Below, in pieces: positions 29,768-62,951 of a DNA stretch of 64,000 bases; position 1 is the first letter of the stretch, and each line of letters begins with the position of its first letter. The stretch covers positions 35,196 to 99,195 of the forward strand of contig JAPLEZ010000142.1 of NCBI GenBank assembly GCA_026390935.1, written 5' to 3'. A program made the translations under genes and the position numbers. Source of the stretch: Bacteroidota bacterium. GTDB taxonomy: Bacteria; Bacteroidota; Bacteroidia; Flavobacteriales_C; GCA-002722245. The notes under the pieces were generated by a model. The model made no database searches. It worked only from the letters and a program-made list of their open reading frames with translations, and was not told the origin of the DNA.

Positions 29768-29776
29768 ATCTTTGTT

Positions 29777-44699: not shown

Positions 44700-45686
44700 T
44701 TATGGTTGATAAGGATGATTGATCGTAAATATTGGATGATCGAAAGCAACTGATACTGCATTGGTATAAGGCGCCACTTGATCAGAAAGCAAAACAAAAG
44801 AGACTTTATCCAACTTATCTGGTTTACCAGGTGTTGACACATTGTCTAATAGCTCAGCATAGGTGTAGCTCAATAATTTCCATCCTGTCCAATCTGGACG
44901 TATATTGATATGTCGAGCTACGCCGCCTTCTTCCCAAAAATTTACTAAAAACCAAGTGTCCGACGGACCATTTCCATAAACCATTATATTGAAATATACT
45001 TTGTTGGAATCGGTCGATAAACCGTAGGTTGAACCATGATTCACATCTGCTTTATTGGAAGCAATATCCATGTAATTTACATAAGGTTCGATAGGTAACT
45101 TGGGATCAAAATTTTGGTGTTTCCATGGCGTTCCCGACATGTAAAAATATTTACCGCCGTCGGCTTTTGGATGAGAATTATCGAATACAGTTACTGCAGG
45201 CCAGTCGCGAGGCCAATCGGTAGCGCTTTTCAATGCAGAGAAATCAGTGATGAGAATGCCATTTTTATCAGGATTTCTCAAGCCTGTTATTGGCATCGTT
45301 GTTTTGAAAGTGTCGGTGGTATGTTTAAAGGTGAGAAAAATGGTCACAGTTTCTTTTTGGAAAGATGGAACGTCATCAGCGGTACCATTCCAAAGTGCAT
45401 TTGATTTATCTACCACTTTTGAAATGGTAGTAAATGTTTTTGTAGCGCCGCTGGTATTCCCTTTTACGGTAATTACCCAGTCGGTTTCTTTTTCAAAGGA
45501 CGCCGTAAAATAAACCGTTTCATCTTTTGAAAAATCTACAGCGGACATACTTTTATTGAGTGGATCAACAACCGTTACCGGACCGTAAATCCCAACAATG
45601 GAAGGGCCTAGCGTGTCTTTTCTGCAGCCGAACTGCAGAGTAAGAACAGCGGTAAAGGCAATTAATATAAATGATAAGTTCTTCAT
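44700..45686 (-). CDS. Hypothetical lipoprotein, candidate glycan-binding surface protein
   Basis: Lipoprotein signal MKNLSFILIAFTAVLTLQFGC. Sits between the GH3 gene and the outer-membrane barrel genes. Confidence 0.5.
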   Translation of the reverse strand: MKNLSFILIAFTAVLTLQFGCRKDTLGPSIVGIYGPVTVVDPLNKSMSAVDFSKDETVYFTASFEKETDWVITVKGNTSGATKTFTTISKVVDKSNALWNGTADDVPSFQKETVTIFLTFKHTTDTFKTTMPITGLRNPDKNGILITDFSALKSATDWPRDWPAVTVFDNSHPKADGGKYFYMSGTPWKHQNFDPKLPIEPYVNYMDIASNKADVNHGSTYGLSTDSNKVYFNIMVYGNGPSDTWFLVNFWEEGGVARHINIRPDWTGWKLLSYTYAELLDNVSTPGKPDKLDKVSFVLLSDQVAPYTNAVSVAFDHPIFTINHPYQP

Positions 45687-45697
45687 AATTTCTTCAA

Positions 45698-47401
45698 TTA
45701 AAAGTTCATGTTGAACATTACTAAAATTTGACTCAGCGAATAGTTGTTCGCGCTAGTTGCTTTGTCTTGATAAGAGAACAAATGATCCTGAACAGTCAAA
45801 TATGATTTTTCGCTGAAGCGGTATTTCACTCCGAAAGCGATAACTGTTTGAGCTACGTCCATGTTAGTGGTAGTGAAATTAACGATCAAATCATTGTAAG
45901 TATTTCTAACCGAAATAAATTCATTTCCTTTTGAGGTCAACATTTTATAACCTCCCAAAACACTCATCTTTTTAAATACTTCCACTTCTAAACCTAGGTC
46001 AGCTAAATTATTTACCAAACTAACTTTTTCAAGTACATCCCCGCCACGATTGGTGGATTCAAAGCTGTATCCGGCAGTTAAAATTAAGCGTTTGTTCCAG
46101 TTCAAAAATTTATGAATGTTGAAATCAACAGCTCCTTTTACAAGCATAAAGCTTCTTAATTGGCTAGATCCTACACCTGCAATTTCCGATAAATATGCAG
46201 CGTCAACATCGGCTACAATTTTTTGTAATGAATCTTTGTACTGTGCATTCAATTGAAATCCTGTTCTGTTTGGCGTTGCTTTTCCGTAAGGCTGTGCATT
46301 TCCATACATTGGATTGTATGCCATCAAACTTCTTGAAATTACTTTGTTGTAAATATTGGCATCTCTTACTAAGTCGAAAATGGTGATACCACGCGTTAAC
46401 GTGTTGTTGTATTTTTGAAAATCGGTAACAGTACCACCATAATTTACACGTTTGCTTTGTGCTGCTGAACTGTAAAATTCGGGCGCAACGTAAGAGTAGT
46501 TGGTGGTTAAAATTAAGTGTTGGTTTTTCAATTGCAATTGTAAACCTGCATCGTAAAAATATCCTTTGGAGTTGCCCGATTTAAATGCTGTGTGTGCATT
46601 TTCAGAATATCCTCCTTCACCAATTAATGACAATTGAGTATTTGCTCCATTAACAATTTTATAATTGATTTCTCCTGTTGCAACCGGATTGTAAAGAAGC
46701 ACTGTATCGCTTTTTACGTTGGCAGCTACATCAAATAAATTTACATAGTTGGCAGCAATTTTCAGTCGTGAACTTTGAGTGATGGTAATTTTTCCTCCGG
46801 CATGAAAAGCAGATGGGAAAGTAGCGTAGCTTGCTCTGTTTCTTAAAAAGAATCCATCTACTCTAATAGTGTCTATAGGAGCTTGATCAAAGGCCAAAGC
46901 AAAGTTTGTTGCTGCACCTTGCTGCCACCAAGAGTTTCCTCTGTTGCTAAGGTTTTCGTAGTTGGTGTAGTCTCTGCGCATATCACTAAAAATTAGCGCT
47001 TCATTTACAGAACCCTCTGAACTATTATTGAAAAAAGTATATGGAGTTAACTTCATGTACAAGTCACCCACCTGATAGTTGAAGATTTTGGCAACTGTTC
47101 CTTTTACCGACAATTGTCGCAAAGTTGCAGAAGCGCCTGCAGTGTAAAATCCACTGAAGTCGTTGTTGAAACGAACAATGGCTTGTATCTCCGTTTTTTT
47201 ATCGGGATTGATGTTAATGCCCAAATCCATCAACACATTCCCTTTGCTGGTGTGGTTGGCGTTGGTGGTGTCGGCATTGTTCATTGTATTTACTTTCTGC
47301 AATGCCCGAGCGTATGCACCAAATTTGATTTTGTCATCTTGTGCATTCATTAGTTGAACACTGATGAAGAACAAACAAAGTAAGATTGCTTTTTTATTCA
47401 T
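45698..47401 (-). CDS. Uncharacterised outer-membrane beta-barrel protein (about 567 aa)
   Basis: Signal peptide MNKKAILLCLFFISVQLMNAQ. C-terminal aromatic residue (...LVMFNMNF) typical of OMPs. Alternating beta-strand pattern. No TonB plug. Confidence 0.6.
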   Translation of the reverse strand: MNKKAILLCLFFISVQLMNAQDDKIKFGAYARALQKVNTMNNADTTNANHTSKGNVLMDLGININPDKKTEIQAIVRFNNDFSGFYTAGASATLRQLSVKGTVAKIFNYQVGDLYMKLTPYTFFNNSSEGSVNEALIFSDMRRDYTNYENLSNRGNSWWQQGAATNFALAFDQAPIDTIRVDGFFLRNRASYATFPSAFHAGGKITITQSSRLKIAANYVNLFDVAANVKSDTVLLYNPVATGEINYKIVNGANTQLSLIGEGGYSENAHTAFKSGNSKGYFYDAGLQLQLKNQHLILTTNYSYVAPEFYSSAAQSKRVNYGGTVTDFQKYNNTLTRGITIFDLVRDANIYNKVISRSLMAYNPMYGNAQPYGKATPNRTGFQLNAQYKDSLQKIVADVDAAYLSEIAGVGSSQLRSFMLVKGAVDFNIHKFLNWNKRLILTAGYSFESTNRGGDVLEKVSLVNNLADLGLEVEVFKKMSVLGGYKMLTSKGNEFISVRNTYNDLIVNFTTTNMDVAQTVIAFGVKYRFSEKSYLTVQDHLFSYQDKATSANNYSLSQILVMFNMNF

Positions 47402-47440
47402 GGTAGATGTATATAAGTTTTTCATTTGTTTCTGTTTTCT

Positions 47441-49399
47441 TTAGAACATTACTTTCAATTCAAGTGTGCCTTCATTTCCTGAGAATTTCTCAGTGGCGAA
47501 ATTTTTGTCTTCAAAGGAGAACCATCGTTGACGGATGTATAAGGTGGTTGAGCTCGTTAGCGAAAAATCGAAACCTACGCCAATCGCTTTTCCAACCTGA
47601 TCTCTCGCATTTCCGTTAGTTCCTAAATCAGTGCTTTGATTTCCTTTGATCATTTCTATACCTCCGTAGAGTGTAAGAATGAAATTTTTGTGCAATTGGT
47701 AGTACACGTCCATTTCATGGTATTGTGCACGAATGTATGCGCTATTATCAAATTTGGTGAAGGCCGAAAATTGTTTTTGCACCGAGCTGAATGTTCCAAG
47801 GTAGTTCACATATAAATCGCGATCCAACACATTCATTTTGTATTTCACTTGGAAATCGAAAGCGTTGTAAAATCTTTTGAATTGGGCATTTCCGTTGGCA
47901 AGTGTATCTGTAAGATTAACTTGCTCATAAGCACCACGGTAGTAAGTTCCAACTCTGTTGTTTGGACCGAACATGCCGGGAATAGGGAAGTAGCCAGGCA
48001 ATCTCGACCACAATAGACTATTCACTCTGTGACCATAGTTTAACACTTTGCCGTTGGCAATCAGTTCTTTTTCAGCTGAAATTTGTGTGCCTGTTGACAC
48101 CATGAATTTCCATACTTTAAAGTTGGTGTTTACTGCGCCACCCATTCTGTTGTTGGCTATGTCGCCAACATTGTCGAGAGAAGGACCAAAGGGCTGCAAT
48201 GAGGTCGTGCCTGTATTTCCTTGGTAACCCGTGTACACTTCTTTAATGGTTGTGTTGTTGAAATTGGCAACGTTGCTGGTGAAGCTTTTGCCAATAGTGT
48301 AATAGCGAAAATCCAAAGGAATGAACGTGTATTTTTTAGGAATGGATAAATCTAAAATCACACCTTCACTCCAGTTTTCTTTGTAAGACGGACTCACATA
48401 TCTTCCGGCACCAACTTCCCCTTTTAAGGATATGCCTTTTATTTTAAATGAGAATTCGGACGTGATAATGTTCCATTGAACATCATTTTTCGATTTAATA
48501 CTATCCGATCTATTGAAATTATTGAAAGTGTTTAAGCTTACGTAATTGTTGTCTTTCAAATTTTTCTTCAATCGGATCCCTAAATTTTGAGAAGGCTTTA
48601 CTTCATTTTCTCTGTTGATTCCACCGTTGGCTCCCGTTTTTCCGTAAAATATATCAACGTTGGTGTTGATTTTAGTGATCAAGCCTGTTGCCATAAAACC
48701 TTTGAACGCTTGTGTTCCAAACCTGTTATCTTGAGTGATCGCACCGCTATAGTAGTAGGAAGCATAACGTGTTTTTACGTTGCCTGCTGGATCCCACGGT
48801 CGTCTTTCAAAAATGCTGAAGCGATTGAATCCTACGTTGGCTCCAAAAGTAAATGGAGTTAATTTCGTCCATTCAATACCACCTGCAATTAAAAAGAAAT
48901 TACCAATCGGGGTGTTTATGTTTCCTCTCAATACAGCAGAGAAGAAAGGACTTACGGTAGGTGCCGCGCCAATACCCGGACCTTTATACACCTGAAAAGG
49001 ATTTCCTATCATCACCTCGGTACCAAAGCTTGTGGTGGCTGTGGGCTGACCACCAACATATAAAAACATGGTAGGATCAAAATAACCATCACCCACGCTC
49101 ATGCTTCGTTTAGGTCCGTCGCCGTATGCTTGATTCATATCTCGGTTGTAGAAAAAACCTCTGTAGTAACCGCCGGTTTGAATACCACTGAGGAATTCTT
49201 TGAACAAGCTTTTTTCTACCGGTGAACTAATTCCATCCGATGAATTTTCTCTTACCAGAGATTTTCTAACCAATGACCAGGGTGTGAAGGCAGCCTTCAT
49301 GGAATCTGATTCTGTTTGTTGCGCGTACGTGGCGTTAAAGCCTGCGCAGCACGCAAACAAGAGGGTTAGAATTCTTTTATTATTTTTTTTAATATGCAT
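47441..49399 (-). CDS. Uncharacterised outer-membrane beta-barrel protein (652 aa)
   Basis: Signal peptide MHIKKNNKRILTLLFACCAGFNATYAQQ. C-terminal ...TLELKVMF. Gly/aromatic-rich strands. No TonB box. Confidence 0.6.
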   Translation of the reverse strand: MHIKKNNKRILTLLFACCAGFNATYAQQTESDSMKAAFTPWSLVRKSLVRENSSDGISSPVEKSLFKEFLSGIQTGGYYRGFFYNRDMNQAYGDGPKRSMSVGDGYFDPTMFLYVGGQPTATTSFGTEVMIGNPFQVYKGPGIGAAPTVSPFFSAVLRGNINTPIGNFFLIAGGIEWTKLTPFTFGANVGFNRFSIFERRPWDPAGNVKTRYASYYYSGAITQDNRFGTQAFKGFMATGLITKINTNVDIFYGKTGANGGINRENEVKPSQNLGIRLKKNLKDNNYVSLNTFNNFNRSDSIKSKNDVQWNIITSEFSFKIKGISLKGEVGAGRYVSPSYKENWSEGVILDLSIPKKYTFIPLDFRYYTIGKSFTSNVANFNNTTIKEVYTGYQGNTGTTSLQPFGPSLDNVGDIANNRMGGAVNTNFKVWKFMVSTGTQISAEKELIANGKVLNYGHRVNSLLWSRLPGYFPIPGMFGPNNRVGTYYRGAYEQVNLTDTLANGNAQFKRFYNAFDFQVKYKMNVLDRDLYVNYLGTFSSVQKQFSAFTKFDNSAYIRAQYHEMDVYYQLHKNFILTLYGGIEMIKGNQSTDLGTNGNARDQVGKAIGVGFDFSLTSSTTLYIRQRWFSFEDKNFATEKFSGNEGTLELKVMF

Positions 49400-50334: not shown

Positions 50335-50922
50335 TTATTTTTTAAGTTTCTTTACGAAGCGAATCTCATCTAGATACAATGTTCCTGTTGGAAGCACCAT
50401 ATATAAGAGCGTATTTACGCGGGCAAGGTCGGCTCCTTTAATGTTGATGGAGTACTTTTTCCATTCGCTGCCGATCTCTAAAAATGTGTCATTTACTTTG
50501 TCAACTTCAGGCGCACCGCCGCCACCAACGCCTATTTCGGGCAAGATGTATGGTCCGCTTTCAGTCTCTTCTGCACGGGCATAAAACTCTAATTTATCGT
50601 AAGGGGTGAGGTCGGGTAATTTTTGATCTTCTTTTAAAGAAATATTCCATGAGCCTGTAAATTGAATGTGCAAACCTCGCCATGCTTCCGAATTATCGGT
50701 TGTGATTTTCATGCAGTTTTCCCCTTTATAAGGTTTGTCTTTGCAGTTGATGTCGATTTTCATGCTCTTCCCATCTTTCTCTCCCATGAAGCCTGTAGGT
50801 ATACCATGTTTGAAATAGTCGGAATAGATTAAGTAGGATTCCACTTCATCTTGTAAAGAAGGAGTAAATGCCAAAAGTGCAACCAAAAAAGCAAGTGAGA
50901 GTATTAGCTTATAACTTTTCAT
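50335..50922 (-). CDS. Hypothetical secreted protein, possible carbohydrate-binding module
   Basis: Signal peptide MKSYKLILSLAFLVALLAF. Beta-sandwich-like composition. Genomic context with GH16. Confidence 0.45.
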   Translation of the reverse strand: MKSYKLILSLAFLVALLAFTPSLQDEVESYLIYSDYFKHGIPTGFMGEKDGKSMKIDINCKDKPYKGENCMKITTDNSEAWRGLHIQFTGSWNISLKEDQKLPDLTPYDKLEFYARAEETESGPYILPEIGVGGGGAPEVDKVNDTFLEIGSEWKKYSINIKGADLARVNTLLYMVLPTGTLYLDEIRFVKKLKK

Positions 50923-51046: not shown

Positions 51047-51227
51047 TCTATGTTGTTGCGGATTGGTCGCAATCATTATCTACGCTAAAGTACTGATAAT
51101 TAATGATATTGTCAAATATACACTAACATTTATTTTTCGCTTGTATAACATATCGTTTGGGACGGGGGAGTAAAAGATTTTTGGGGAGGGAAGTTTATTT
51201 TGACGTTTTAATAAACAGAAAAGGTAA

Positions 51228-52454
51228 TTACATACATCTATCAATTGCCCTTTGTATCATGTTTTTTGAATCCCTGCTCACTCCGCACTCACTTGCATAT
51301 TTTTTCCAGTTGTTCACCACCTCTTGCACCTGCTCAATAATATTTGCAGAGTTTTTTACTCTAAAATAATTTGCCAGCTCCAATAAGTGCTTTTTTGTGG
51401 GATTTGCACTTTCTCCGCCTACCATAGTGCTATGCATGCCATATCCCGAACTTGAAAAAGTTAAATCATAGGCAGGTGCCACTTTCCATTTCCCCGTAGC
51501 GTCCATTAAGAAAGAAAAGTTTTTACTGTGATCATCTCTGTTGTGGGTGAAGATATTAAATGCTGCCAATCGCAATATTTTTTCATAGGCATTTATATCC
51601 TTTTCCAGTCGGAAAGCACAATCCATCAGATTTCCATAATCCAATGAACTTGATCTAAAATTATCGTGCATTATTCCTGCTGCCGAATGCATATGTAGGC
51701 GCGTATTTCCGTTTCTGTCAAAGCGTTTGGTGCCAAAATATACTTTTTGTGATTTGCCTTTAAAGAGTTTGCACTCGCTCATTTCAATGCCTGCATCGGA
51801 AGCCATTCGATAATAAGCATATTCTATGTTTGCAACGTCAGTTAGATCTAAGGAAGATGGAAATTTGATCAGCCAGTGCTGATAATCTTTGGGCAACATT
51901 TTTTCATCTGCAATTAAATGCTGTGTAACAGGATTGTATCCCACTACAATTTTTGGTCGGGCTCCACCTGAAGAGCCACCAAGAATAACTAGCTCATCTA
52001 AAACATCAATCGCAGTGCCCGAAATAATTTGTTGGCTAGCCTTAGCAATTTCATCCAATTCAAGCTTGAAATTGTTGTCGATTTCTTCCCCTTTAGCTGG
52101 TTGGTAAATCAAGGCCCCCATGCCGTTAGCGCCCACATAAGCCAGACGGTCGAGTGCGCCAACATCATCAAGCGCTATGCCTTTGGCACTTAAAGATCTA
52201 TCGAGCAACAATCTTCCCCAGCCATCAGGCAATGAATCTGCAAACACACCAAATAATCCATCGAAAGGAAGGGCGTCGGCTTTATTTATCTCCCTGTTTA
52301 ATTTTAATTTGATGGGGGATATTTCGAGCCCTGTTTTTATAAAATCACTGTAGTATTTGAAATAAATATTTTTTGCTTCCGCCACCAATTCACCCACTTC
52401 AATTTCTTCTTTATTGAACTGAATCGAAACAATTATTTTCTTGATACGCCCCAT
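51228..52454 (-). CDS. hipA: HipA-family serine/threonine kinase toxin
   Basis: HipA N-terminal coupling domain and a C-terminal kinase core with HSKNFSFLMD (HxKNxS catalytic loop). Start overlaps the hipB stop (TAATG). Confidence 0.8.
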   Translation of the reverse strand: MGRIKKIIVSIQFNKEEIEVGELVAEAKNIYFKYYSDFIKTGLEISPIKLKLNREINKADALPFDGLFGVFADSLPDGWGRLLLDRSLSAKGIALDDVGALDRLAYVGANGMGALIYQPAKGEEIDNNFKLELDEIAKASQQIISGTAIDVLDELVILGGSSGGARPKIVVGYNPVTQHLIADEKMLPKDYQHWLIKFPSSLDLTDVANIEYAYYRMASDAGIEMSECKLFKGKSQKVYFGTKRFDRNGNTRLHMHSAAGIMHDNFRSSSLDYGNLMDCAFRLEKDINAYEKILRLAAFNIFTHNRDDHSKNFSFLMDATGKWKVAPAYDLTFSSSGYGMHSTMVGGESANPTKKHLLELANYFRVKNSANIIEQVQEVVNNWKKYASECGVSRDSKNMIQRAIDRCM

Positions 52455-52783
52455 TATTTTCTAGTTTTATCTCCAAATAATTTTTCTATCGCCTTAAGAT
52501 TTTCTGTTGATTTTAATATTAATTCAAAGTCGTTTATCCGGTTTAAGACGTGTGCTAATTTTAATAGTGATTCCAACGAAATCTGCCCGCTTAACTCAAA
52601 GCGTTTAATGCTTCCCAGCGAAACGCCTGATCGTTTGGCCAGTTCCATTTGTGTAAAACCCATTTGCTTTCTTAAAACTTTATGTTTTTGAGCAAGTTCT
52701 TCTAAAAAATCATGAGGATATTTCTCTATTCCAAATTTTGCCATGATGGATAATATATTATCTAAATGTAGATGTTTGTTCAC
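52454..52783 (-). CDS. hipB: XRE-family HTH antitoxin (HipB-like)
   Basis: HTH MGFTQMELAKRSGVSLGSIKRFE. Lies immediately upstream of hipA and is translationally coupled to it. Confidence 0.75.
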   Translation of the reverse strand: MNKHLHLDNILSIMAKFGIEKYPHDFLEELAQKHKVLRKQMGFTQMELAKRSGVSLGSIKRFELSGQISLESLLKLAHVLNRINDFELILKSTENLKAIEKLFGDKTRK

Positions 52784-52970: not shown

Positions 52971-53615
52971 TTAATTCAATTTTATTTTTGACCTTTTTTG
53001 TTTACCAAAATCCTCTATGTATTTTGCTCTATCAAACTCTTTAATATATTCAATATTCCAATTTATAAAGGATTCTTTTGAAAGCTTTTTACTATATTCT
53101 TCATTCAAAAGAATAGCAGATTCCTTCCCTTTTAATAAGGCTGTTGTAATTATTTTAGTATACATAGCACTTTCATTGGATGGATTCTGATTAAGCAAAA
53201 AATCTGCTACTTCATTTGCTTTTTTAAAGTAATAATTTGCAGTATCATTCTTTCGCAATTTTGCATAAAACACTCCCTTATCAAGTAATAACACATCATT
53301 TTCTGGATTTACAGATATCATATGATTTATTAGTGTAATCGCCTTGGTCCAATCTTCTTTTTGAATTAATGCATTTAACTTATTATGATAAGGCAATGCA
53401 TAATTGGGATCACATTGAATGGCTTTATCTAAGAGGTAAATAGCTGAATCTAGATAAAAGGTAGAATCCTCTTCCATATATTTTTGTAGGAACCGAGTTC
53501 CTTCATTGTTATATAAGATGCATTCTTTATCTGTATTGCTTTTACAAGAAATGGATAATCCATAACAAACAATACTGAGTAAAATCCATTTGAAAATATT
53601 ACTGTTTTCTTTCAT
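52971..53615 (-). CDS. Tetratricopeptide-repeat protein (secreted/lipoprotein)
   Basis: Signal peptide plus Cys (LSISCKSN). TPR-like helical repeats (YALPYHNKLNALIQKEDWTKAITLINHMISVNPEN...). Confidence 0.6.
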   Translation of the reverse strand: MKENSNIFKWILLSIVCYGLSISCKSNTDKECILYNNEGTRFLQKYMEEDSTFYLDSAIYLLDKAIQCDPNYALPYHNKLNALIQKEDWTKAITLINHMISVNPENDVLLLDKGVFYAKLRKNDTANYYFKKANEVADFLLNQNPSNESAMYTKIITTALLKGKESAILLNEEYSKKLSKESFINWNIEYIKEFDRAKYIEDFGKQKRSKIKLN

Positions 53616-53660: not shown

Positions 53661-53918
53661 TTACTTTTCTTGCTCCAAAGGCAGACGAACATATTCTTTG
53701 AACCTTTCTTCGATTGCTCCAAAAGATTTAAAATTCTCTTTTGCCTGCATTAAACTAACACTATTTGCTCCCCCTTGATAATTAGGCTCTTGAAATTGTA
53801 CGCCATCATCTTCCCAGTAGCATACTGGACAAAATTGAAAGGTATTCTCAGCTTTGTCATTTAAAGTATAAAAGCCACAACACGGGCACTTATACTTTCC
53901 AAAAATATTAGTGTCCAT
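53661..53918 (-). CDS. Cysteine-rich CPCC-domain small protein
   Basis: YKCPCCGFYTL...FCPVCYWEDDGVQ is the CPxCG...CPxC-WEDD pattern of the Cys_rich_CPCC family. Confidence 0.65.
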   Translation of the reverse strand: MDTNIFGKYKCPCCGFYTLNDKAENTFQFCPVCYWEDDGVQFQEPNYQGGANSVSLMQAKENFKSFGAIEERFKEYVRLPLEQEK

Positions 53919-54140: not shown

Positions 54141-54178
54141 AAATAAAAAAGAGGATAATGATTGCTCATTATCCTCTT
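54141..54178 (-). terminator. Rho-independent terminator downstream of 54203..55078
   Basis: 13-bp stem AAGAGGATAATGA / TCATTATCCTCTT with a 4-nt loop, followed on the minus strand by TTTTATTT. Confidence 0.75.
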
Positions 54179-54202: not shown

Positions 54203-55078
54203 TTAGTTCAAAAACAATCTTTGAGTAGTTGTTCCTGCTGCAGTTTGCACTGTGATGTAGTAGATACCAGCATTTTTACCATTCAAATCAATGTTTACGT
54301 TTGATTGTGTTGATTGAGTTGAATAAATGGTTTGTCCTAAAACGTTTGAAACCGATACAGTAATCAAATCTGAATTTGCATTGTTTAAAGAAACGTTAAC
54401 TAAACCAGTTGAAGGGTTTGGGTAAACTGCCAACTTATTTTCGGTGATTAGATTAATTCCATTTGATTTTTCGCCAACTGTAAGTTTGGCAACTTTAAGA
54501 GTTCCGCTCAACGCAACAGTGAAGTCGGCTGCATCAGGCAGACCTTTGTGGTATGGCCATTCACTTGCATATCCAGCATTAACCCAAAAACGAATTTTTT
54601 TGATTTTAGTGGAATCAACATTTCCCTGCGCAGTACCGTTAGCTCCACCGTAATTATCTTTAAACTGACCTTGGAAATTGCAGCTATGTGCAGTGAACCC
54701 TGCGTCTTTAACTACCTTGAAGATGTTTTGTTGACCGCCTGCTAATTGGTTATCAGCTTGCTTATTGTTTTCATCAACCAACACAAATTGTAAAGCTACT
54801 GTTTGATCAGTGCTTGCATTAATGGTAACTATAGGTTTAACCCCTGCAGCAGAAAAATCAATGGAAGTAGGGAAAGTGATTTCAAAGTTGTCGTAATGAT
54901 CGTATCCAGCAGAAGTGATCGCCCAGTTGTTGCCGTCACTTGTGCTAGTGAAGTTAACATAATTGTTCCCAGTCAAAGTTGGAGCAGTGGTAAATTCATC
55001 AGAGTAAGAGTAAGTTTGCGCATTCGCTGTTATTCCCAAAAACAACAGACTAACAATAGAGAGTAAATTTCTTTTCAT
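54203..55078 (-). CDS. Hypothetical secreted protein with T9SS type-A C-terminal sorting domain
   Basis: Signal peptide MKRNLLSIVSLLFLGITANAQ. C-terminal ...GIYYITVQTAAGTTTQRLFLN. Confidence 0.7.
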   Translation of the reverse strand: MKRNLLSIVSLLFLGITANAQTYSYSDEFTTAPTLTGNNYVNFTSTSDGNNWAITSAGYDHYDNFEITFPTSIDFSAAGVKPIVTINASTDQTVALQFVLVDENNKQADNQLAGGQQNIFKVVKDAGFTAHSCNFQGQFKDNYGGANGTAQGNVDSTKIKKIRFWVNAGYASEWPYHKGLPDAADFTVALSGTLKVAKLTVGEKSNGINLITENKLAVYPNPSTGLVNVSLNNANSDLITVSVSNVLGQTIYSTQSTQSNVNIDLNGKNAGIYYITVQTAAGTTTQRLFLN

Positions 55079-55379
55079 AATTATAAAATTAGTTTATAGA
55101 ACAATGTTAAGTGTTATTTGTTTATTTGTCAAGAGATATTTGAAATAAATATTTTGTAAAATATTGAATAATACGTAGTTAAAATGAACTAAAATACACT
55201 AACATTACGTTTAGTGGTTTTGATAATATTTTGATAATCAGTGATGTAAGTTATTTTGGTAGCGCTAATATTTGCGTTTAGATAACAACGTTTTGCGGTA
55301 TAATAGTTTTGTAATTTCACTTTGAATGATTTTGAATTATCAGTTCACTTATACTTGATTTTTGAAAATACGTTGCATA

Positions 55380-57233
55380 TTATTTTTCTTCCTCTGAATT
55401 TAGCACCAGCTGACTCCAGCCATCTTGATCTTTGTCCTTGGATTTCTTTCTTGTTGCCAGTACCTCCTGAATCTTTTTATTAAACGTCCAGCAAGTGCTT
55501 TGTCGCAGCGATAAAATAGTAGACAATTCCAATGACGTAATTTTCTCTTTGTTGGCAAACACAAGGAAGAGAAGGTAAAAGGCTTTATTTATTGGGAATT
55601 TCAATTTATGGAAAATGGTATCCACCGTTGGAGATTCATCATAACGACACTTGGTGCAGCGGCGATAAAAATCATCTTTGCCTTCACACCATTTCTGATT
55701 GCCGCATTTCTTGCAGGCGTAGCCCTTCGACCATTTCAAGTCAACCAGGTATTTAAGACAGCTTTCTTTATCGGGGAAGATTCTGCTGAATTCTTCGAAA
55801 TTCACTTCCTTCATCAACACCCTCGCTTTTGTTAATTCCTTGACGTTGGTGGTTAATGCCTTATTGTCTTCGTTCAGCAAGGCATTCATGCGGTTGATTT
55901 CTTCGTAGGCATCCTGCAACTCAAGATTTTTTTCGTCGAGGTCGCGGGTACGTTCCAATACTTTTTCCTCTAATTCTCTATTTACTTTGTCTTTTAATAG
56001 TTCATTCTCTTTCAATTGTTCAATTACTCTTTGTTGAGCAGCTTGCTGCTTGGCGCGAATCAACTTTATTCTATCTCCCAGTGCGAAAGAAAGAATAACG
56101 ATTTCAAACACAAATCCAATGTTGAAGGAATACACAAAGAAAATATTGTCGCTATGGATTAAACCACTCATTCTGAAGGCCAGAAAAATAATGGTTACAA
56201 TCATGAACGAGTAACCGATGATGAAATATCTTGCTTGGTGCAGACCTTTTTTAATGCACAGTATAGATGCAATGTAAATAAATAAAAAGGGTAGAAGATA
56301 AAATTCAAAGTGCAAAGGCATTCTCATTATTATTCCAACAAAGAAGAAGGCGATGTAAAAAAGCATCACGATATTAAGGGCTGTATTGATTTTTGGAAGT
56401 AAACTCTTAAGCTCTAAAAAGCGTTTTGCATAAATGGTGAAAGTTAAAAGCAATAACAAAGGCGCTAAATTACCAATGACCAAGTTTATAGAAGGGAAGT
56501 TCGGCCATATGTACTGAAATCCTAAACCATCTTCTACCATTGAAATCATGGCGCAACAAACTACATAGAGTACATAATACAAGTATACTTTGTCGCGTAA
56601 GGAGAAAAACATAATCAGGTTGTAAATACCCATGATGGCAAGTATTCCATAGAATAAGCCAAGCAAGTAATATTCACCTAAAGCATATCTGCTAAAAGAC
56701 GAGGTGGACCGTATTTTAAAAATGAAGGGATTGTGATTATTGGATTTACATCGCACAAAGTAGGTTTGAACGGCTGTGTCGGGAGAAATGTCAAACACAA
56801 AATTTTTGTGCTGGTATTTTCTAATGCCAAAATTGGAGGTGAAGCCGGCTTTTTCTTTGGTGAATACTTCGGGATCATTTGTAGATTGCTTGTACAACTC
56901 AAAATCGTTGATGTGTGAGTCGCTGTTTTCCAGCACATAATGCTTGTTTAAACTAGCATTTGCCTTGATGCGGAATTTGATCCAATACGCAGATTCAGGA
57001 TTAACAATGAAAGCAAAGCGCTCACTACTTTGGAATGGAGTAAATCCATTGTTGTGCTTGATGTCATTGATGTTGAGCTTGTTGGTTTTGTCCTCCAGAA
57101 TTTCAGTTGATTTCCCTTCTATCAAGTAATCATCACTGATTTTTTCATCTAACAGAATCACTTCCTGAGCCTTTAAATCGGCAGATAAAAGAAGAAGAGT
57201 GACACAAAAAATTTTGCAGATATATCGGATCAT
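55380..57233 (-). CDS. 7TMR-DISM membrane receptor (extracellular DISMED2-like domain plus 7 TM) fused to a coiled coil and a C-terminal IS1595/ISXO2-type transposase Zn-ribbon/HTH DNA-binding module. Lacks a DDE domain
   Basis: Signal peptide. About 200 aa extracellular beta-rich domain. Seven hydrophobic helices (YYLLGLFYGILAIMGIYNLIMFF ... FVFEIVILSFALG). Coiled coil (KQQAAQQRVIEQLKENELLKDKVNRELEEKVLERTRDLDEKNLELQ). C-terminal CLKYLVDLKWSKGYACKKCGNQKWCEG...YRRCTKCRYDESPTVDTIFHKLKFPINKAFYLLFLV...SLELSTILSLRQSTCWTFNKKIQE parallels the N-terminal Zn-ribbon plus HTH of IS1595-family transposases. Confidence 0.7.
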   Translation of the reverse strand: MIRYICKIFCVTLLLLSADLKAQEVILLDEKISDDYLIEGKSTEILEDKTNKLNINDIKHNNGFTPFQSSERFAFIVNPESAYWIKFRIKANASLNKHYVLENSDSHINDFELYKQSTNDPEVFTKEKAGFTSNFGIRKYQHKNFVFDISPDTAVQTYFVRCKSNNHNPFIFKIRSTSSFSRYALGEYYLLGLFYGILAIMGIYNLIMFFSLRDKVYLYYVLYVVCCAMISMVEDGLGFQYIWPNFPSINLVIGNLAPLLLLLTFTIYAKRFLELKSLLPKINTALNIVMLFYIAFFFVGIIMRMPLHFEFYLLPFLFIYIASILCIKKGLHQARYFIIGYSFMIVTIIFLAFRMSGLIHSDNIFFVYSFNIGFVFEIVILSFALGDRIKLIRAKQQAAQQRVIEQLKENELLKDKVNRELEEKVLERTRDLDEKNLELQDAYEEINRMNALLNEDNKALTTNVKELTKARVLMKEVNFEEFSRIFPDKESCLKYLVDLKWSKGYACKKCGNQKWCEGKDDFYRRCTKCRYDESPTVDTIFHKLKFPINKAFYLLFLVFANKEKITSLELSTILSLRQSTCWTFNKKIQEVLATRKKSKDKDQDGWSQLVLNSEEEK

Positions 57234-57304: not shown

Positions 57305-60300
57305 TTATCTGATCAAAGTGATCCGGCCAATTAAAGATTTTTCTGAAGTTTTTTCATTTTTACTTGCCACCGAAAAGGTGATTTTGTAAACGTAAACATC
57401 AATTTGTGAATCGTGTCCGTATTTCCCTTTTCCATTCCAGCCTGTATTGATATCTGTGGAAGTAAAAATGTTTTCTCCCCACCTGTTGAAGATGTCCATT
57501 TTGAAATCCAGGATATTGTAAGCTGATGGTGTAAAGACATCGTTTTTATTATCGCCGTTAGGAGTGAAGGAATTAGGCACAAAAAAACTGTACGGACAAT
57601 TGCCATCAAAAACTATGGTATCACTTATTTCCTTGCAATCACCGCTGCTCATTCGCACAATATATTGTCCTGGTTGCTTTGCTAAATATTGCGCCTTGGT
57701 GCTGTTGTCCTGCCAAATGTAAGTGTTGACGGTACTTGTGTCGCCGGCATTTAAAAGAACATTATCACCATCACATAAAGTGGAATCTTCTCCTAAATTA
57801 ATTTGTGGCAACGCTTTTACTTTGATAATGACGCTTTGTGTATCGCTAGGGCAGCTGCCGTTTGAGGTAGTCCAAAGTAATGTTGTACTGCTTCCATTAG
57901 TTAATTCTGTGAGCTGAGTGCTAGGAGAATTTACATCCATAATATTTGCACTTCCTGAAATTAGCTTCCAGGAGCCGCTTCCGATAACAGGAACCGTTGC
58001 TGATAAAGTGGTTGTTGTACTGCAAATGCTTTGATCATTTCCTGCAAGGGCCGGGCTTGGCAGACTTTCAATCACGATGTCTACACTATCCGACGAAGAG
58101 CAAACTCCGTTGGAGATCGTCCAAAGCAATGTTGTTTTTCCGGCAGTCAAACCGCTGATTGACGATGCTGCATCATTAGCATTTGCAATTGTTGCCGATC
58201 CACTGCTTACCGTCCATGTTCCGGTTTCCGAAAGCTGAGCGCTATTTCCAGCTAGAATTGCAGTGCTCATATTACACAACACCTGATCATTTCCTGCGTC
58301 GGAAAGGCTTGGTGCTAAAAGACTTTGAACATTTATTGAGGTGGATGAACTCGGACAGGAACCGTTCACTATCGTCCACACAAAAGTGTTAGTCCCTGCG
58401 GTTAAACCATTTACAGTAGCGTTTGGAGCAGTAATATTGGAAAAAGTTCCGCTGCCAGATGATACTGTCCAGATGCCTGTTCCAACACTTGCGATATTTC
58501 CCGAGAGTTGAATATCCGTGCCACAAATCACAGTGTCATTTCCTGCGATAGATGGAGTTGGCAGGGCATTGAATACAACTGGAGTTCCTTTTGAAACGGA
58601 GAGGCATGGATCGCTCAAGTCGATTCCTCCTCCGCCATTGCTGTTTCCTGCTACAGCCGAAATGTAGTAGGTGGTGCCGTACACCATAGGATTAACAAAG
58701 GAAAATGAAGGAGTAGTATTTGTTCCGAAAACAGTGCCCAGTAGGGTGCCGTTGTTACTGTGCAAATAGTACATCAAGGCATCGTCGGCATCTAAATTGG
58801 CGCCTGTGGCAGCAGCTGCAATTGCGTTTGCATTTTCGCAAACATTCATTGCTGTTAACGCCATACTTCCCGCTGAGGTAGCGCAATTGCAATTTTTTGA
58901 TCCGGCAACAATATTGGGCGTGCAATTGTTTTTGTCTTTAACAATGAAGGAATAAGCGCTGCCACTTGGTATTGGAGCACTTGTAAATGTATTGCCTAAT
59001 AATACTCCTGGTCCTCCTGGTCCAACTCCGTTTACCAACACTTCATAGGAAAGAGAATCTCCACCGCTTAAAGTAAAGGTCACAGTGTAATCACTAATTC
59101 CATTGCAGGTTTCAGAGAAGATAGGAGTTGCTGGAGCCTGAGCATTTTTGACGTTGACTGTGTCAGAATCCTTGCAACCGTTGGTGTCCGTTACTACAAC
59201 TGAATAGTCGTTAGCGTTGGAAACACTAATGGTTTTTGATGTCTCAGAAGTTGACCATTGGTAAGTTCCGTTTACACCGGCATCTAAAGTTATTGTTGAT
59301 GCCTGGCAAACCACAGTGTCGGTTCCAAGATTTACCACGGGCAAAGCATTAAATACAACTGGAGTTCCTTTTGCAACCGATAAACATGGGTCGTTCAAAT
59401 CAATTTCTCCAAGTCCGTTGTCAGTGCCTACTACAGAAGAAATGTAGTATGTTGTGCCATACACCATGCCACTACTGAAGTTGAAGTAGGGGCTGTTTCC
59501 AGTGGCATAAACTGTCCCTAAGTTTGTTCCGCTGCCGCTGTGTAAATAGTAAAGTAAAACATCATTGGGGTCCAGTATTTCGTTGTTGTTATGGCTTGCT
59601 GATGCGTGAGCCGTGTCGCCACATATTTTTATTAGAGTTTGCTTCATTGTTCCGGCATTGCTAATGCACGAGCAAGATTTTGAGCCAGAAATTGTGTCGA
59701 CATCACAAGAGTTTTTATCAGTCACGATGAAGGAGTAAGCGGATCCGCTGGCAATCAAGGAACTTGTAAAGGAAGTGCCGGAAAGTGTACCGGGTCCACC
59801 CGTAGCACCGCCATTTACACTTACGGAATATGGTGCTTCTCCTCCCGAAATGTCAAAAGTAAGGGTGTAAGAAGTTCCAGTGCCGTTGCATGTTTTAGTA
59901 ATGTTGGTTTCGTTGATGGTGTCTTTTAACTGAACAATGAAAGTGTCTTTTTTTACTATACAATTGCTGATGTTGTAGCTTATGTGGTAGGTTCCTGCAG
60001 CAGATGCAGTGTAGGTATTGGTGTTTGCACCTCCAATGTTTACGCCGTTTTTGTCCCATTGGTAATTGGTGGCGCAGGTAGTGTCTTTTGCTTTTAGTTT
60101 TACTGGATTGTTTGGGCAAATCACATAAATACTATCGGGAATTTTTGTTTCCGGACATTTATTAAATACATACATGGAGTCTTCATTGGGGAGTAGAAAA
60201 CAACTGCCATCGGAAAAGGTGACTTTCGTTTTTGCGAAAGCACCTGCCGGATTGTATACCACATAATTTTTGCAGCCATTTTTATTGAATACGGCATAGG

Positions 60301-62647
60301 TAGGCATATCGGCTGTGATAGTGGCGTCAACAGTTCCAAGTTTTTCTAAAGAGTATATCCATTGGTAGGTATGTGCTTTGGTTTCGCCAGTTTGGGGAAT
60401 ATAAGTGGCTTCATTGGCGGCAAAAGTGCTTTTTGCTGAGGCATTGTCAATTAAGGCTTGAAAATTCCAAATGATGTCTTTGAAATCGGTGTGAGGAGCG
60501 GCAATTTTACTATTGACGTTCAGGTTGTTGGTGGTCATTTCATTGTAGTTGTCTGCGGCTGCAGCCTGATTTAAACCCAGGTACAATGAACTTCCGTTGA
60601 TGGGTAGAAAACTAATTCCGTGATTGTATTCGGGGTTATAAGGGCCTGGCCACATAGCACTTCCAAACCATGTTTGGTAGCCAACTCCCCATCCCCAAAC
60701 CATTCCGGCGGTGTTGAACCAGTTGCCAGACGGATAGGTTATTTTGTCTTCGTCTTGCCAGTACTGTCTGTAGCCATCAATTTCTGTGGCATAAAGAAAG
60801 GCCCCCAAATCGCGCAAGGTTTTATTGTTTGTTTCTGTCCCCCATAAAGCAACGCCAGAGGCGAAGTTGATGGCTTCGGAGCTAGATTCCTGATTATTAC
60901 CTGCAGTAAAGTTGGAGTGACCCGAAGCCCATGAATGTCCGGCGTAAGGATCAAAATTACGCAGAAATGGAAATTGAGTATTGCTGCGATCCCAGTTGGC
61001 CACATCTTTAATCAACATTTCAACCATTGGTCCCCATTGGGTTTCCCAAGTGTTGTTGGGTTCAAACTTTGCCACAATAGCTGCTGCTTTCACAAAATAG
61101 CCATAGCCGAAATGGTGGTCGTTCAGCTGTCTGTCAGATTCAAAAGCAGAAGGCATTCCAATTAAAGATTGCCATTTTGAATCGTAGTAAAATTGGTCGT
61201 CATTAGGCGCTGCTGCTTTGTTTGTGGTGAACCAGCGTTGCAGGTAGTCTTTGGTCCATTGCCTGAAAGTATCACGAGCAACGGTATGGCCAACCATATC
61301 TGCTAGTTCAATCAAATCGCATACTTTAAGTAAAGCAACTCCAGCTCCATAAACAGCGAGGGACGCATTGTCGGCATAAAAGAAAAAGTTTTTTCCTTTT
61401 ACTAGTTCCGCCTGGACGTAGTTATACAACTTCGTTTTGTCGTAGGTGCCGTAATCGGGCATTCCCGGCAGAAAGCCGTGATTGGTATGTGAATTCACAA
61501 AAGAGCTTCCTTCATATACTTTCATTTCTCCTCGAGCTGTTGATGGGTAACTATATGCTGTTGCTGCGGCAGGGGATGAGGCATCAATGTTTTTCCACTG
61601 GTGCGGATACATAGCCATTAATGTTTTGGTTTCAGTGCTGTTTCCCTGTGGCACGGTGGTGCATGTGAAGGTATTGCGGACAACCGATTTACATTCGTCA
61701 TATTCCCAGGAAACCTTTGTGTCGGTGACAAAAGCAAATGCAAATTTCGCATAATAGGCAAGTGTTGCAGGAGAATTGTCGGGTAATACAGCAACGGAAA
61801 AATAATTTTGTCCCGCTGGCAATTGAACTTTTTGTGCGTCTCGAGGTACATTGTTGTAGGCCATATCGCCTTCCATCTGATTAAGAATGTATGATGCACT
61901 GAGTGTTGTTCCCGGAGGACAAAAGATCCCGTAATGCTTGCCTAAAAGCGTAACTCCTCGGGCTTCAATGGTGGCGTTGGAAATGCTAGCAAAGGGTACA
62001 GGAGTTCCTGCGATGTACCTTAATGTAGGATTGCTTGAGCCTGTTTTTTTAAAATATACATAGGGTGATCCATGACCAGAGGTAGCTTCAAGCACTCTAC
62101 CGGCTCCATCATCCCATTGCATTGTAACCGACCAATCACCATAGCTTTTTACCTTCGTTCCAGTTGAAGCTGGAACATCCATACCGTCCAAACCTACCCA
62201 TAAGTGATTTTCTCTCCAAACGTGATAATCTACCATGCCGCCATTTGCGTTATTGGAAAAAACAGGATTGTTTTCATAGGACACATTTAATCCGTATCGA
62301 GTAGCTTGGATAATTAATGGATGAGGATGCATGAGGAAAGAATACGGAGAAATCAACCAATCAGGATAATAAACACTATTTGGCATTTCGTAACTCCAAA
62401 TGGCCGATGACCACCAATCGTTGGTTTGTATTGGCTGCGAAAAACCGGGTACTACTTTCGGCAACGCACCAGTGCGATCAGCATTGTCAACTCTTTGATA
62501 GTGACTTGTACCAGGCGCCGGATTATTAGGTAAAATAGTTGCGCCTGTTGGCAGTGCTGTCGTATAACTTCCCGCTCCTACCGAAACCGTTTGTGCGGAT
62601 ACAGACAGTGAACTTAAGAGCAGTATAAAGAGTAATCTAAAAATCAT
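57305..62647 (-). CDS. Cell-surface GH81 endo-beta-1,3-glucanase with multiple Ig-like/Cys-rich repeat domains and a T9SS type-B (gliding-motility-associated) C-terminal domain
   Basis: GH81 signatures LNDHHFGYGYF, DPYAGHSWASGH and ESSSEAINF. Signal peptide MIFRLLFILLLSSLSVSAQ, with the start chosen at 62647. C-terminal FVPNSFTPNGDNKNDVF...GRITLIR is the type-B CTD. Internal 780-bp tandem duplication (58561..59340 and 59341..60120). Confidence 0.8.
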   Translation of the reverse strand: MIFRLLFILLLSSLSVSAQTVSVGAGSYTTALPTGATILPNNPAPGTSHYQRVDNADRTGALPKVVPGFSQPIQTNDWWSSAIWSYEMPNSVYYPDWLISPYSFLMHPHPLIIQATRYGLNVSYENNPVFSNNANGGMVDYHVWRENHLWVGLDGMDVPASTGTKVKSYGDWSVTMQWDDGAGRVLEATSGHGSPYVYFKKTGSSNPTLRYIAGTPVPFASISNATIEARGVTLLGKHYGIFCPPGTTLSASYILNQMEGDMAYNNVPRDAQKVQLPAGQNYFSVAVLPDNSPATLAYYAKFAFAFVTDTKVSWEYDECKSVVRNTFTCTTVPQGNSTETKTLMAMYPHQWKNIDASSPAAATAYSYPSTARGEMKVYEGSSFVNSHTNHGFLPGMPDYGTYDKTKLYNYVQAELVKGKNFFFYADNASLAVYGAGVALLKVCDLIELADMVGHTVARDTFRQWTKDYLQRWFTTNKAAAPNDDQFYYDSKWQSLIGMPSAFESDRQLNDHHFGYGYFVKAAAIVAKFEPNNTWETQWGPMVEMLIKDVANWDRSNTQFPFLRNFDPYAGHSWASGHSNFTAGNNQESSSEAINFASGVALWGTETNNKTLRDLGAFLYATEIDGYRQYWQDEDKITYPSGNWFNTAGMVWGWGVGYQTWFGSAMWPGPYNPEYNHGISFLPINGSSLYLGLNQAAAADNYNEMTTNNLNVNSKIAAPHTDFKDIIWNFQALIDNASAKSTFAANEATYIPQTGETKAHTYQWIYSLEKLGTVDATITADMPTYAVFNKNGCKNYVVYNPAGAFAKTKVTFSDGSCFLLPNEDSMYVFNKCPETKIPDSIYVICPNNPVKLKAKDTTCATNYQWDKNGVNIGGANTNTYTASAAGTYHISYNISNCIVKKDTFIVQLKDTINETNITKTCNGTGTSYTLTFDISGGEAPYSVSVNGGATGGPGTLSGTSFTSSLIASGSAYSFIVTDKNSCDVDTISGSKSCSCISNAGTMKQTLIKICGDTAHASASHNNNEILDPNDVLLYYLHSGSGTNLGTVYATGNSPYFNFSSGMVYGTTYYISSVVGTDNGLGEIDLNDPCLSVAKGTPVVFNALPVVNLGTDTVVCQASTITLDAGVNGTYQWSTSETSKTISVSNANDYSVVVTDTNGCKDSDTVNVKNAQAPATPIFSETCNGISDYTVTFTLSGGDSLSYEVLVNGVGPGGPGVLLGNTFTSAPIPSGSAYSFIVKDKNNCTPNIVAGSKNCNCATSAGSMALTAMNVCENANAIAAAATGANLDADDALMYYLHSNNGTLLGTVFGTNTTPSFSFVNPMVYGTTYYISAVAGNSNGGGGIDLSDPCLSVSKGTPVVFNALPTPSIAGNDTVICGTDIQLSGNIASVGTGIWTVSSGSGTFSNITAPNATVNGLTAGTNTFVWTIVNGSCPSSSTSINVQSLLAPSLSDAGNDQVLCNMSTAILAGNSAQLSETGTWTVSSGSATIANANDAASSISGLTAGKTTLLWTISNGVCSSSDSVDIVIESLPSPALAGNDQSICSTTTTLSATVPVIGSGSWKLISGSANIMDVNSPSTQLTELTNGSSTTLLWTTSNGSCPSDTQSVIIKVKALPQINLGEDSTLCDGDNVLLNAGDTSTVNTYIWQDNSTKAQYLAKQPGQYIVRMSSGDCKEISDTIVFDGNCPYSFFVPNSFTPNGDNKNDVFTPSAYNILDFKMDIFNRWGENIFTSTDINTGWNGKGKYGHDSQIDVYVYKITFSVASKNEKTSEKSLIGRITLIR

Positions 62648-62951
62648 CGTTGCAGGATTACGTTTAGAAAAAAAATTAGTTTGCATAGAAAGATCAGTAA
62701 TAAGCATAACTCCAATTTAAAGTAAATCAAAGCAGAAACAAAGTAAAACCATCAAAAGTTACAGCGTAATAAATTGATTTACAGATAGTTAAATTGATGG
62801 TAATTCACGCTTACAAGGCAAAATCGTTATTTGCTAAAAATGTGATAATGAGGCTATTGATTATTTTGGTAACAAGAAGGTTTTACACTTAGTGCGCAAT
62901 TGCAAAAGTGAAGCGTAATTTTATTTTACTAAAAAAGGAGGGAGATTTTTT

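Follow-up and report, generated by a model that had tools for sequence, protein, structure and literature searches.

We report on a gene in a 64,000-nucleotide stretch of contig JAPLEZ010000142.1 from a Bacteroidota bacterium (hereafter the window). It encodes a receptor of the 7TMR-DISM type fused to a C-terminal module that, by homology, is the N-terminal DNA-binding region of an insertion sequence (IS) transposase of the IS1595 family, without its DDE catalytic domain. Our reading, to which we give a probability of roughly 0.65, is that this protein is an inner-membrane one-component sensor-regulator of the beta-glucan utilization locus in which its gene lies, DNA binding and ligand being predicted by comparison. 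The evidence comes from the anatomy of the protein, its homology to transposases, the loss of the DDE domain and inverted repeats, the conservation of the fusion, the association of its genes with polysaccharide utilization loci (PULs), and an output cassette shared with a second type of sensor. The coordinates of all the features are listed in Table 1.

The open reading frame (ORF), predicted in a first-pass annotation of this DNA made from the sequence alone, is real and lies on the minus strand. Pfam and hydropathy analysis agree with the architecture proposed there for its N-terminal part, i.e. a signal peptide, an extracellular beta-rich domain, and seven transmembrane (TM) segments. The two dedicated hidden Markov models (HMMs) both match strongly: 7TMR-DISMED2 (PF07696) with an E value of 2.8e-20, well over threshold, and 7TMR-DISM_7TM (PF07695) over its full model length with an E value of 1.9e-46 (159 bits for a cut-off of 29). 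Because there are a signal peptide and seven TM segments, the C terminus of the receptor is cytoplasmic. Pfam and NCBIfam identify no kinase, GGDEF/EAL, PP2C phosphatase, cyclase, or other output domain in the ORF, even at E ≤ 1, and there is no Pfam match to HisKA, HATPase_c, receiver, AraC helix-turn-helix (HTH), or Reg_prop/Y_Y_Y domains. In a full-length AlphaFold2 (AF2) model (pLDDT 84.5), a beta-sandwich at residues 25-176 is followed by a seven-helix bundle in which the TM7 helix extends to residue 438, by a second helix (residues 444-471, of low confidence in this monomer model), and by the C-terminal module. When this model was compared with known structures using Foldseek, the periplasmic domain of RetS (3jyb and 2xbz) provided the sole matches at E ≤ 0.001, followed by weaker matches to carbohydrate-binding modules and to sugar-binding domains of glycoside hydrolase (GH) family GH2.

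Structure model and alignment confirm that, as first described, a coiled coil is followed by a Cys-x2-Cys ... Cys-x2-Cys ribbon and an HTH. The CxxC pairs are at residues 507-510 and 526-529, and the four Cys are invariant in 64 homologues. Within the recognition helix (residues 577-595), none of these 64 proteins departs from R577, T580, or F584, and 63 of them have K587; positions 578, 579, 583, and 585, which are predicted to contact bases, vary among polar and basic residues. The module model (pLDDT 87.9) contains the expected HTH fold, which resembles DNA-bound homeodomains and the DNA-binding domains of TnsB and Tc3. As assessed by HMM searches, homology of the C terminus to IS1595 transposases is clear: Zn_ribbon_IS1595 (PF12760) matches residues 488-531 (E 4e-5), and positions 3-57 of the NCBIfam model transpos_IS1595 match residues 545-598 (E 7.7e-5), although the Pfam score of 23.9 bits is under the gathering cut-off of 25.4. 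Relatives score above this cut-off.

A tblastn search of plasmids with the last 146 residues identified multi-copy genes annotated as "IS1595 family transposase" in Chondrinema litorale (Cytophagales), with 40-43% identity and a best E value of 1e-28. By BLASTP, receptor residues 482-597 align gap-free to residues 12-127 of the Chondrinema transposase (L001:2468-3370, 300 aa), with 47% identity over 116 residues (E 1e-36), which bears out the original suggestion that the module tracks the N-terminal region of these enzymes. This transposase, which is flanked by 31-nt inverted repeats that are 84% complementary, has its DDE_Tnp_IS1595 domain at residues 131-268. The alignment ends near the start of that domain, and the receptor therefore stops about where it would begin. 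DDE_Tnp_IS1595 is absent from the receptor ORF (Pfam), and tblastn with the DDE part of the Chondrinema protein found no remnant in any frame of the window. No IS-like inverted repeats were found around the module, which is present as one copy in the window, in a gene that is syntenic in relatives. As it has neither a DDE domain nor inverted repeats and shows no mobility, the receptor is not an IS1595 transposase, in line with the first-pass view that this is not a mobile element. The two empty searches and the single, syntenic copy also led us to reject a disrupted IS. The three points on which the first-pass annotation had staked its reading have thus come out as matches to IS1595 HMMs, no DDE domain downstream, and a predicted HTH fold.

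The helix between the TM bundle and the module is, as judged by eye, a candidate for a signaling helix (S-helix) like those of receptor kinases and cyclases. S-helices are defined by an ERT signature in the central heptad of a parallel coiled coil of ∼40 residues that joins sensor and output (PMC1592074). The receptor has E427-R428-T429, of which R428 and T429 are at least 90% conserved across homologues. We propose the following scheme, in which we infer DNA binding, operator identity, ligand, sign of regulation, and dimerization. The ligand of the periplasmic DISMED2 beta-sandwich would be a fragment from glycan breakdown. For this receptor, the presence of GH81, GH16, and GH3 in the locus suggests beta-1,3-gluco-oligosaccharides as the most likely ligand, set free by the secreted GH81 and GH16 enzymes. 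The signal would travel via the 7TM bundle into a dimeric signaling helix (ERT) and then into the second coiled coil, where the change would set the geometry of two C-terminal Zn-ribbon/HTH modules. These modules would bind an operator beside the gene, the protein being still held in the membrane, and adjacent GH and SusC/SusD operons would be switched.

The fusion belongs to a large family. A word-indexed search identified more than 120 full-length homologues of ∼620 aa, 38-88% identical to the receptor, in assemblies from Cytophagaceae, Microscillaceae, Cytophagales, and Flavobacteriales, with two paralogues on several contigs. Cultured carriers include Persicobacter, Flammeovirga, Aureibacter, Pararhodonellum, and Arthrospiribacter, and a metagenome scan with alignment identified at least 525 relatives. 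Members with locus tags are AABK40_RS22480, beside GH16/GH3, and AABK40_RS17490 in Persicobacter psychrovividus NBRC 101262, AABK36_RS21235 in Aureibacter tunicatorum, and KM029_RS25565 in Flammeovirga kamogawensis. A profile of the module searched against 1.84 billion representatives of clusters at 50% identity returned 482 matches at E ≤ 1e-30, 3,731 at E ≤ 1e-10, and 11,891 at E ≤ 1e-3, the weaker tiers presumably including ordinary IS1595 transposases. The module is C-terminal in all of the best 150 matches, which were listed. A census of the fusion, as proposed in the first-pass annotation, finds it conserved in hundreds of homologues. Across the family, the mean frequency of the majority residue is 0.66 in the module, 0.65 in the coil, 0.60 in the 7TM core, and 0.49 in the periplasmic domain. 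This points to purifying selection on the module, whose conservation at least matches that of the 7TM core, and a conserved output with a variable periplasmic domain is the pattern expected if ligands differ and the output is common.

Public names of these proteins are misleading. One homologue is a "transposase" at NCBI and several are a "two-component system, sensor histidine kinase LadS" at JGI (P0094, P0009, and P0019 are among the misnamed proteins). Other members are named [quoted passage not shown] and none has a DDE or kinase domain. In one metagenomic locus (L041, about 15000-16000, minus strand), a 320-aa ORF that matches the module alone is found two genes downstream of a receptor-fusion gene and is absent in the near-identical L042. 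It is probably a genuine IS1595 transposase, and its position near a fusion gene shows the IS family coexisting with the domesticated one.

The same output is also found in a second architecture. Of the 150 best representatives, ten are ∼1,000 aa long, and the nine that were scanned consist of Reg_prop repeats and a Y_Y_Y domain, a single TM segment, the same coil, and the module; no kinase, receiver, or AraC domain was found in these nine. Their coil has an ERT-type motif and an "EEI.RMN.LL...VKELTKAR" stretch, as in 7TM-type members. Reg_prop/Y_Y_Y is the periplasmic oligosaccharide-binding sensor of the hybrid two-component systems (HTCS) of Bacteroides (PMC3243724). The Reg_prop modules are 52-69% identical to 7TM-type modules and 26-36% identical to the transposase, and they are not monophyletic in a neighbor-joining tree rooted on the transposase. 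This suggests one domestication of the IS1595 DNA-binding region, in which DDE was lost, followed by swaps of the "coil + module" cassette between 7TMR-DISM and Reg_prop/Y_Y_Y sensors, a history that we word conditionally because the module tree is a quick distance tree.

Annotated genomes place distant family members in polysaccharide loci. In Persicobacter, one member follows SusD-PKD-GH3-GH16 (pPP7) and another is located between SusC-SusD-GH3-GH5-GH2 and GH16-SusC-SusD-GH3 (pPP2). The member in Aureibacter comes after bglX-GH43-GH97-bglX-sulfatase, that of bacterium AO1-C is ahead of SusC-SusD-GH3-GH16-CBM9-transporter, and Flammeovirga offers a further example. To quantify this context, ORFs were called in 99 fetched loci and labeled by phmmer against reference proteins, and dereplication at 80% identity left 51 loci with at least two neighbors. 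Calling and labeling were simple, and the counts are lower bounds because the reference set is small. A PUL marker is no more than three genes away in 29 of the 51 loci, and among the other 22, Pfam identified GH9 cellulases in four and a glucoamylase in one. The link to PULs is position-specific. Relative to the receptor gene, SusC is at +1 in 13/49 loci, SusD at +2 in 13/46, and a GH at −1 in 12/47, compared with 1/97 for SusC/D and 1/97 for GH at five or more genes upstream. For the Reg_prop class, the three informative loci are all within PULs. The proposal that the receptor is a transmembrane carbohydrate-sensing transcription factor has therefore gained strong comparative support, from the SusC/SusD/GH loci of many lineages and from the cassette on HTCS-type sensors, with direct DNA binding, ligand, and regulatory effect as its predicted parts.

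On the minus strand of the window, the order is GH81, a 71-bp gap, the receptor gene, a 301-bp gap, a gene for a protein sorted by the type IX secretion system (T9SS), a HipBA-containing block, and the GH16...GH3 cluster. The GH81 gene had been reported as an adjacent neighbor on the same strand, which it is, but the receptor gene is downstream of it (71 bp past its stop codon) rather than upstream. No terminator-like site was found in this 71-bp gap, and the two genes are probably co-transcribed. A terminator-like hairpin (54149-54178) follows the T9SS gene, which is found directly after the receptor gene in all close relatives and whose promoter region holds candidate operator copies. The genes of the GH16...GH3 cluster are likely to be regulated genes; as assessed by family matches of the locus proteins, there is no other recognizable regulator in the beta-glucan locus or in its relatives.

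Relatives at 72-88% identity have the same gene order without the HipBA insertion. The block comprises a HipA kinase (51228-52454), its HTH_3 partner (52454-52783), a TPR lipoprotein (52971-53615), and a Cys_rich_CPCC protein (53661-53918), all encoded on the minus strand. Because the block is missing from the corresponding site in the relatives L003, L004, L005, and L020, it looks like a recent insertion splitting the beta-glucan locus. Four conserved proteins of the locus (652, 575, 328, and 195 aa; 44700-49399 and 50335-50922, minus strand) match nothing in Pfam or NCBIfam. The 652/575/328-aa trio has homologues ∼4 kb upstream of another family paralogue (L015:345-6008), and there the first of the three carries CBM_4_9. 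The four proteins may serve to capture or take up glycans, standing in for SusC/D in this T9SS-based locus.

The intergenic DNA around family genes contains a candidate operator. In distant loci, with 34-36% protein identity to the receptor, GCGTGTGyr-CTARGTGTAA is found between the receptor gene and SusC. The motif was defined on this group and tested on all the other dereplicated loci, allowing at most one mismatch. In this hold-out, there were seven matches in 14.8 kb of downstream-adjacent intergenic DNA, where the frequency elsewhere between genes would predict 1.15 (Poisson P about 2e-4); a count of seven was attained in 2 of 500 shuffles. Orthologous alignments show conserved TTGY-N4-CTAAGYGYAA blocks amid diverged flanks ahead of GH81, in the gap that separates the receptor gene from the T9SS gene, and ahead of the GH16 operon, and the best window match to a position weight matrix (PWM) built from non-window sites is CACTAAGTGTAAAA in the GH81 promoter. 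The variant element AATGTTAGTGTAT has exactly two copies in the window, both retained in orthologous loci. Neither TAATTATCAG-type repeats in intergenic regions (10 for 6.75 expected) nor sites in a sigma-70 promoter scan (43 for 39.7 expected), a scan that is uninformative for Bacteroidota, were enriched.

Other subgroups have other elements. A ∼25-nt enriched element, AAACGTTTGAAAAYAATGTTTTT, precedes SusC in seven loci (L006-L008, L061, L066, L070, and L071), 35-230 nt past the receptor stop codon; it contains an 8-bp palindrome, AAACGTTT, an 8-mer enriched ∼50-fold relative to the remaining intergenic DNA. Beside the Reg_prop member in L100, a CTAAGTGTAA-like site was looked for and not found. 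Downstream of this Reg_prop/Y_Y_Y member (L100:12942-13907), there are instead two GGGTGTGATATT(C/G)CG copies and the related GGGGTGTAATAAA, and the GGGTGTGATATT element may be the operator of this paralogue.

Several points weigh against a membrane-bound regulator of a beta-glucan locus. The Zn-ribbon of the receptor itself is 1.5 bits short of the Pfam gathering threshold, and among solved structures a module profile run against PDB sequences produced nothing beyond noise (PKC C1 domains, ribosomal Zn-ribbons, and MarR, all at E > 0.03). DNA binding by the N-terminal region of IS1595 transposases is itself predicted by homology. The locus in the window is not a canonical PUL, because no SusC/D was found in it. 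The operator motif is a post hoc finding whose PWM lacks specificity, with two window matches of at least 13 bits for 2.6 in shuffles, which makes the motif a lead only. The strong conservation of the recognition helix poses the question of how paralogues in the same genome escape cross-talk. Finally, about one-third of the dereplicated loci have no CAZyme or SusC/D neighbor.

One alternative, which would accommodate this last point, is a DNA-binding membrane regulator whose signal is an ion or the state of the envelope or membrane, and which adjusts genes for secretion and surface enzymes generally. Such sensing has already been proposed for some 7TMR-DISM kinases, the ligands of 7TMR-DISM proteins are mostly debated or not known, and Por_Secre_tail proteins are the commonest neighbors in the loci without a CAZyme. 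It would leave unexplained why SusC/SusD and GH genes are at specific positions, why the DISMED2 model resembles RetS and carbohydrate-binding beta-sandwiches, and why the same output cassette is found on the oligosaccharide-sensing Reg_prop/Y_Y_Y domain. We consider this unlikely, although it is the best placed of the alternatives.

Somewhat less probable again is that the module is the output but not a membrane-tethered binder of an operator, acting instead after proteolytic release, through contacts with proteins (RNA polymerase, a sigma factor, or another regulator), or on RNA. Between the two coils, residues 439-476 have low confidence in the AF2 model, the operator evidence is suggestive, and a recognition helix that varies so little is unusual in a paralogous family of transcription factors. 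The HTH fold with its basic recognition helix and tail, and the homology of the module to a region expected to bind IS ends, point instead to DNA. The linker is a conserved putative S-helix, a type of linker typical of intact dimeric receptors, and no conserved protease site or partner gene was found nearby.

It is very improbable that the module keeps a transposon role, in which a DNA-binding fragment without DDE would attach to IS1595 ends and so inhibit transposition or direct its targeting, under control of the receptor. Truncated transposases are established inhibitors in other IS families, and the nearest relative outside the family is an active-looking multi-copy IS1595 of Cytophagales. 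However, the window contains neither an IS1595 copy nor a remnant of DDE, the modules are 52-69% identical to each other and only 26-42% identical to the transposase, and such a role would explain neither why the genes are found in PULs nor why the module is joined to glycan sensors. The inverted repeat of the IS (AATAGGGTTACCCAT core) is unlike the elements conserved beside family genes. An operator resembling IS1595 ends was considered and dropped, the Chondrinema inverted repeat TTATTTAATAGGGTTACCCATTTAAATCTCA being unlike the conserved intergenic elements. An artefact, i.e. an IS1595 decayed inside a 7TMR-DISM kinase gene or an assembly chimera, as the "transposase" and "LadS" annotations of homologues might suggest, is refuted by the census, because hundreds of intact full-length homologues from independent assemblies share the same junction, with a module under purifying selection, conserved synteny, and no DDE, inverted-repeat, or kinase remnants.

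Returning to a one-component glycan regulator, the reading can be extended to the family. Proteins in which a 7TMR-DISM or Reg_prop/Y_Y_Y sensor is joined to a domesticated IS1595 Zn-ribbon/HTH would form a major, previously unrecognized class of regulators for the PULs of Cytophagia and Flavobacteriia. With no phosphorelay, a signaling helix would directly gate a membrane-tethered module on a TTGY-N4-CTAAGYGYAA-type operator beside the protein's own gene, and the cassette would have been shuffled between sensor types. We hold this wider proposal at even odds.

Table 1. Features of the receptor gene, its locus, and the candidate operators in the window.
Feature	Position	Strand	Evidence
Receptor ORF, 617 aa, 7TMR-DISM fused to IS1595-type Zn-ribbon/HTH	55380..57233	-	Pfam, NCBIfam, homologues, AF2
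Signal peptide, residues 1-22	57168..57233	-	hydropathy
Periplasmic 7TMR-DISMED2 beta-sandwich, residues 40-173, putative ligand-binding domain	56715..57116	-	Pfam (E 2.8e-20), Foldseek
7TMR-DISM_7TM, seven TM helices, residues 187-388	56070..56675	-	Pfam, hydropathy, AF2
Cytoplasmic helical linker / coiled coil, residues 389-478	55800..56069	-	AF2
S-helix-type ERT signature, residues 427-429	55947-55955	-	alignment, S-helix definition (PMC1592074)
Two short helices and Zn-ribbon, residues 479-535	55629..55799	-	Pfam, structure model, alignment, BLASTP
Three-helix HTH, residues 536-600, then basic tail	55434..55628	-	NCBIfam, structure model, Foldseek, BLASTP
GH81 beta-1,3-glucanase, 1800 aa, CHU_C type IX secretion signal; upstream gene	57305..62707	-	Pfam, synteny
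291-aa T9SS-sorted protein, no other domain; downstream gene	54203..55078	-	Pfam, synteny
Rest of beta-glucan locus: 195 aa, GH16, 652 aa, 575 aa, 328 aa, GH3, 612 aa	40489..50922	-	Pfam, synteny
Candidate operator CACTAAGTGTAAAA, containing exact CTAAGTGTAA at 62883-62892, 185 nt upstream of GH81 start	62881..62894	-	conserved orthologous block, PWM
Candidate operator copy ATCTAAACGCAAAT, between receptor and T9SS genes	55270..55283	-	orthologous alignment, PWM
13-mer AATGTTAGTGTAT (variant element), upstream of T9SS gene	55194..55206	-	repeat search
Second AATGTTAGTGTAT copy, overlapping a TAnnTTTG -7-like box upstream of the 195-aa/GH16 operon	51118..51130	-	repeat search

Elsewhere in the window, glutamate synthase (19109-25262) and PEP carboxylase (37857-40463) mark it as ordinary chromosome. 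Three tandem LuxR/GerE-type regulator paralogues of 262, 262, and 224 aa, one of them with a PAS fold (5668-7912, minus strand), adjoin a 2139-aa T9SS-sorted protein with no other recognizable domain (8039-14458, minus strand). There are also a CP_ATPgrasp / Alpha-E / transglutaminase operon (27965-31231, minus strand) and a LytTR-type two-component pair (34568-36282, plus strand).

The family appears to be large and unrecognized, and its members appear to be transmembrane one-component PUL regulators with a new, transposase-derived output. PUL regulation is known chiefly from gut Bacteroides, through HTCS, SusR, and pairs of extracytoplasmic function (ECF) sigma and anti-sigma factors. In environmental Cytophagia and Flavobacteriia, which turn over glycans such as laminarin and cellulose, a recognizable regulator is missing from many loci, and the family would fill part of this gap. 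It is a rare, well-supported bacterial instance in which the DNA-binding domain of a transposase has been domesticated as part of a host regulator and, if our reading is correct, a clear one of such a domain having become a family of transcription factors. The path from sensor to helix to DNA would then be simple, with no phosphorelay, and could lend itself to modular glycan biosensors. Pipelines that use PF12760 as a transposase marker would miscount family members as mobile elements; one paper lists PF12760 solely as such a marker. No paper describing the receptor-module architecture was found in the full-text literature, in which most subscription journals are outside coverage, in agreement with the first-pass impression that the domain combination is uncharacterized.

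Among known systems, HTCS are also inner-membrane proteins encoded in or beside PULs that combine periplasmic glycan sensing with a DNA-binding output in a single chain, and the sister architecture of the family uses the very Reg_prop/Y_Y_Y sensor of HTCS. Unlike HTCS, the receptor has no HisKA/HATPase, receiver, or AraC HTH, its sensor is 7TMR-DISM instead of a beta-propeller, and this sensor is coupled directly, via a coiled coil, to an IS1595-type Zn-ribbon/HTH. With the 7TMR-DISM receptors (RetS, LadS, RgsP, and related kinases and cyclases), it shares DISMED2 and the 7TM region, and its periplasmic model matches the crystal structures of RetS. The outputs known for these receptors are histidine kinases, GGDEF/EAL, PP2C, and cyclases, whereas here there is a DNA-binding module and no enzymatic domain. 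Similarly, the receptor resembles S-helix proteins in having a conserved ERT in a coiled-coil linker directly past the last TM helix, but this helix runs into a DNA-binding module rather than an enzyme. IS1595/ISXO2-like transposases have the N-terminal helices, CxxC...CxxC Zn-ribbon, and HTH in common with the receptor, which differs from them by the absence of DDE and terminal inverted repeats, by its single syntenic copy, and by the location of the module C-terminal to a receptor.

ChiS of Vibrio cholerae is a membrane-embedded direct DNA binder, whose DNA-binding domain is also found with 7TMR-DISM (PMC8092284). As the receptor would, ChiS controls transcription at the membrane as a sensor with its own DNA-binding domain, and it senses a polysaccharide product (chitin). 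The DNA-binding fold and family are unrelated, and ChiS keeps kinase and receiver domains. ToxR, CadC, TcpP, and SusR of Bacteroides are further membrane-embedded DNA-binding regulators. The topology of ToxR-like regulators, with an N-terminal cytoplasmic OmpR-type winged HTH, a single TM segment, and a C-terminal periplasmic domain, is opposite to that of the receptor, and their DNA-binding domain is different.

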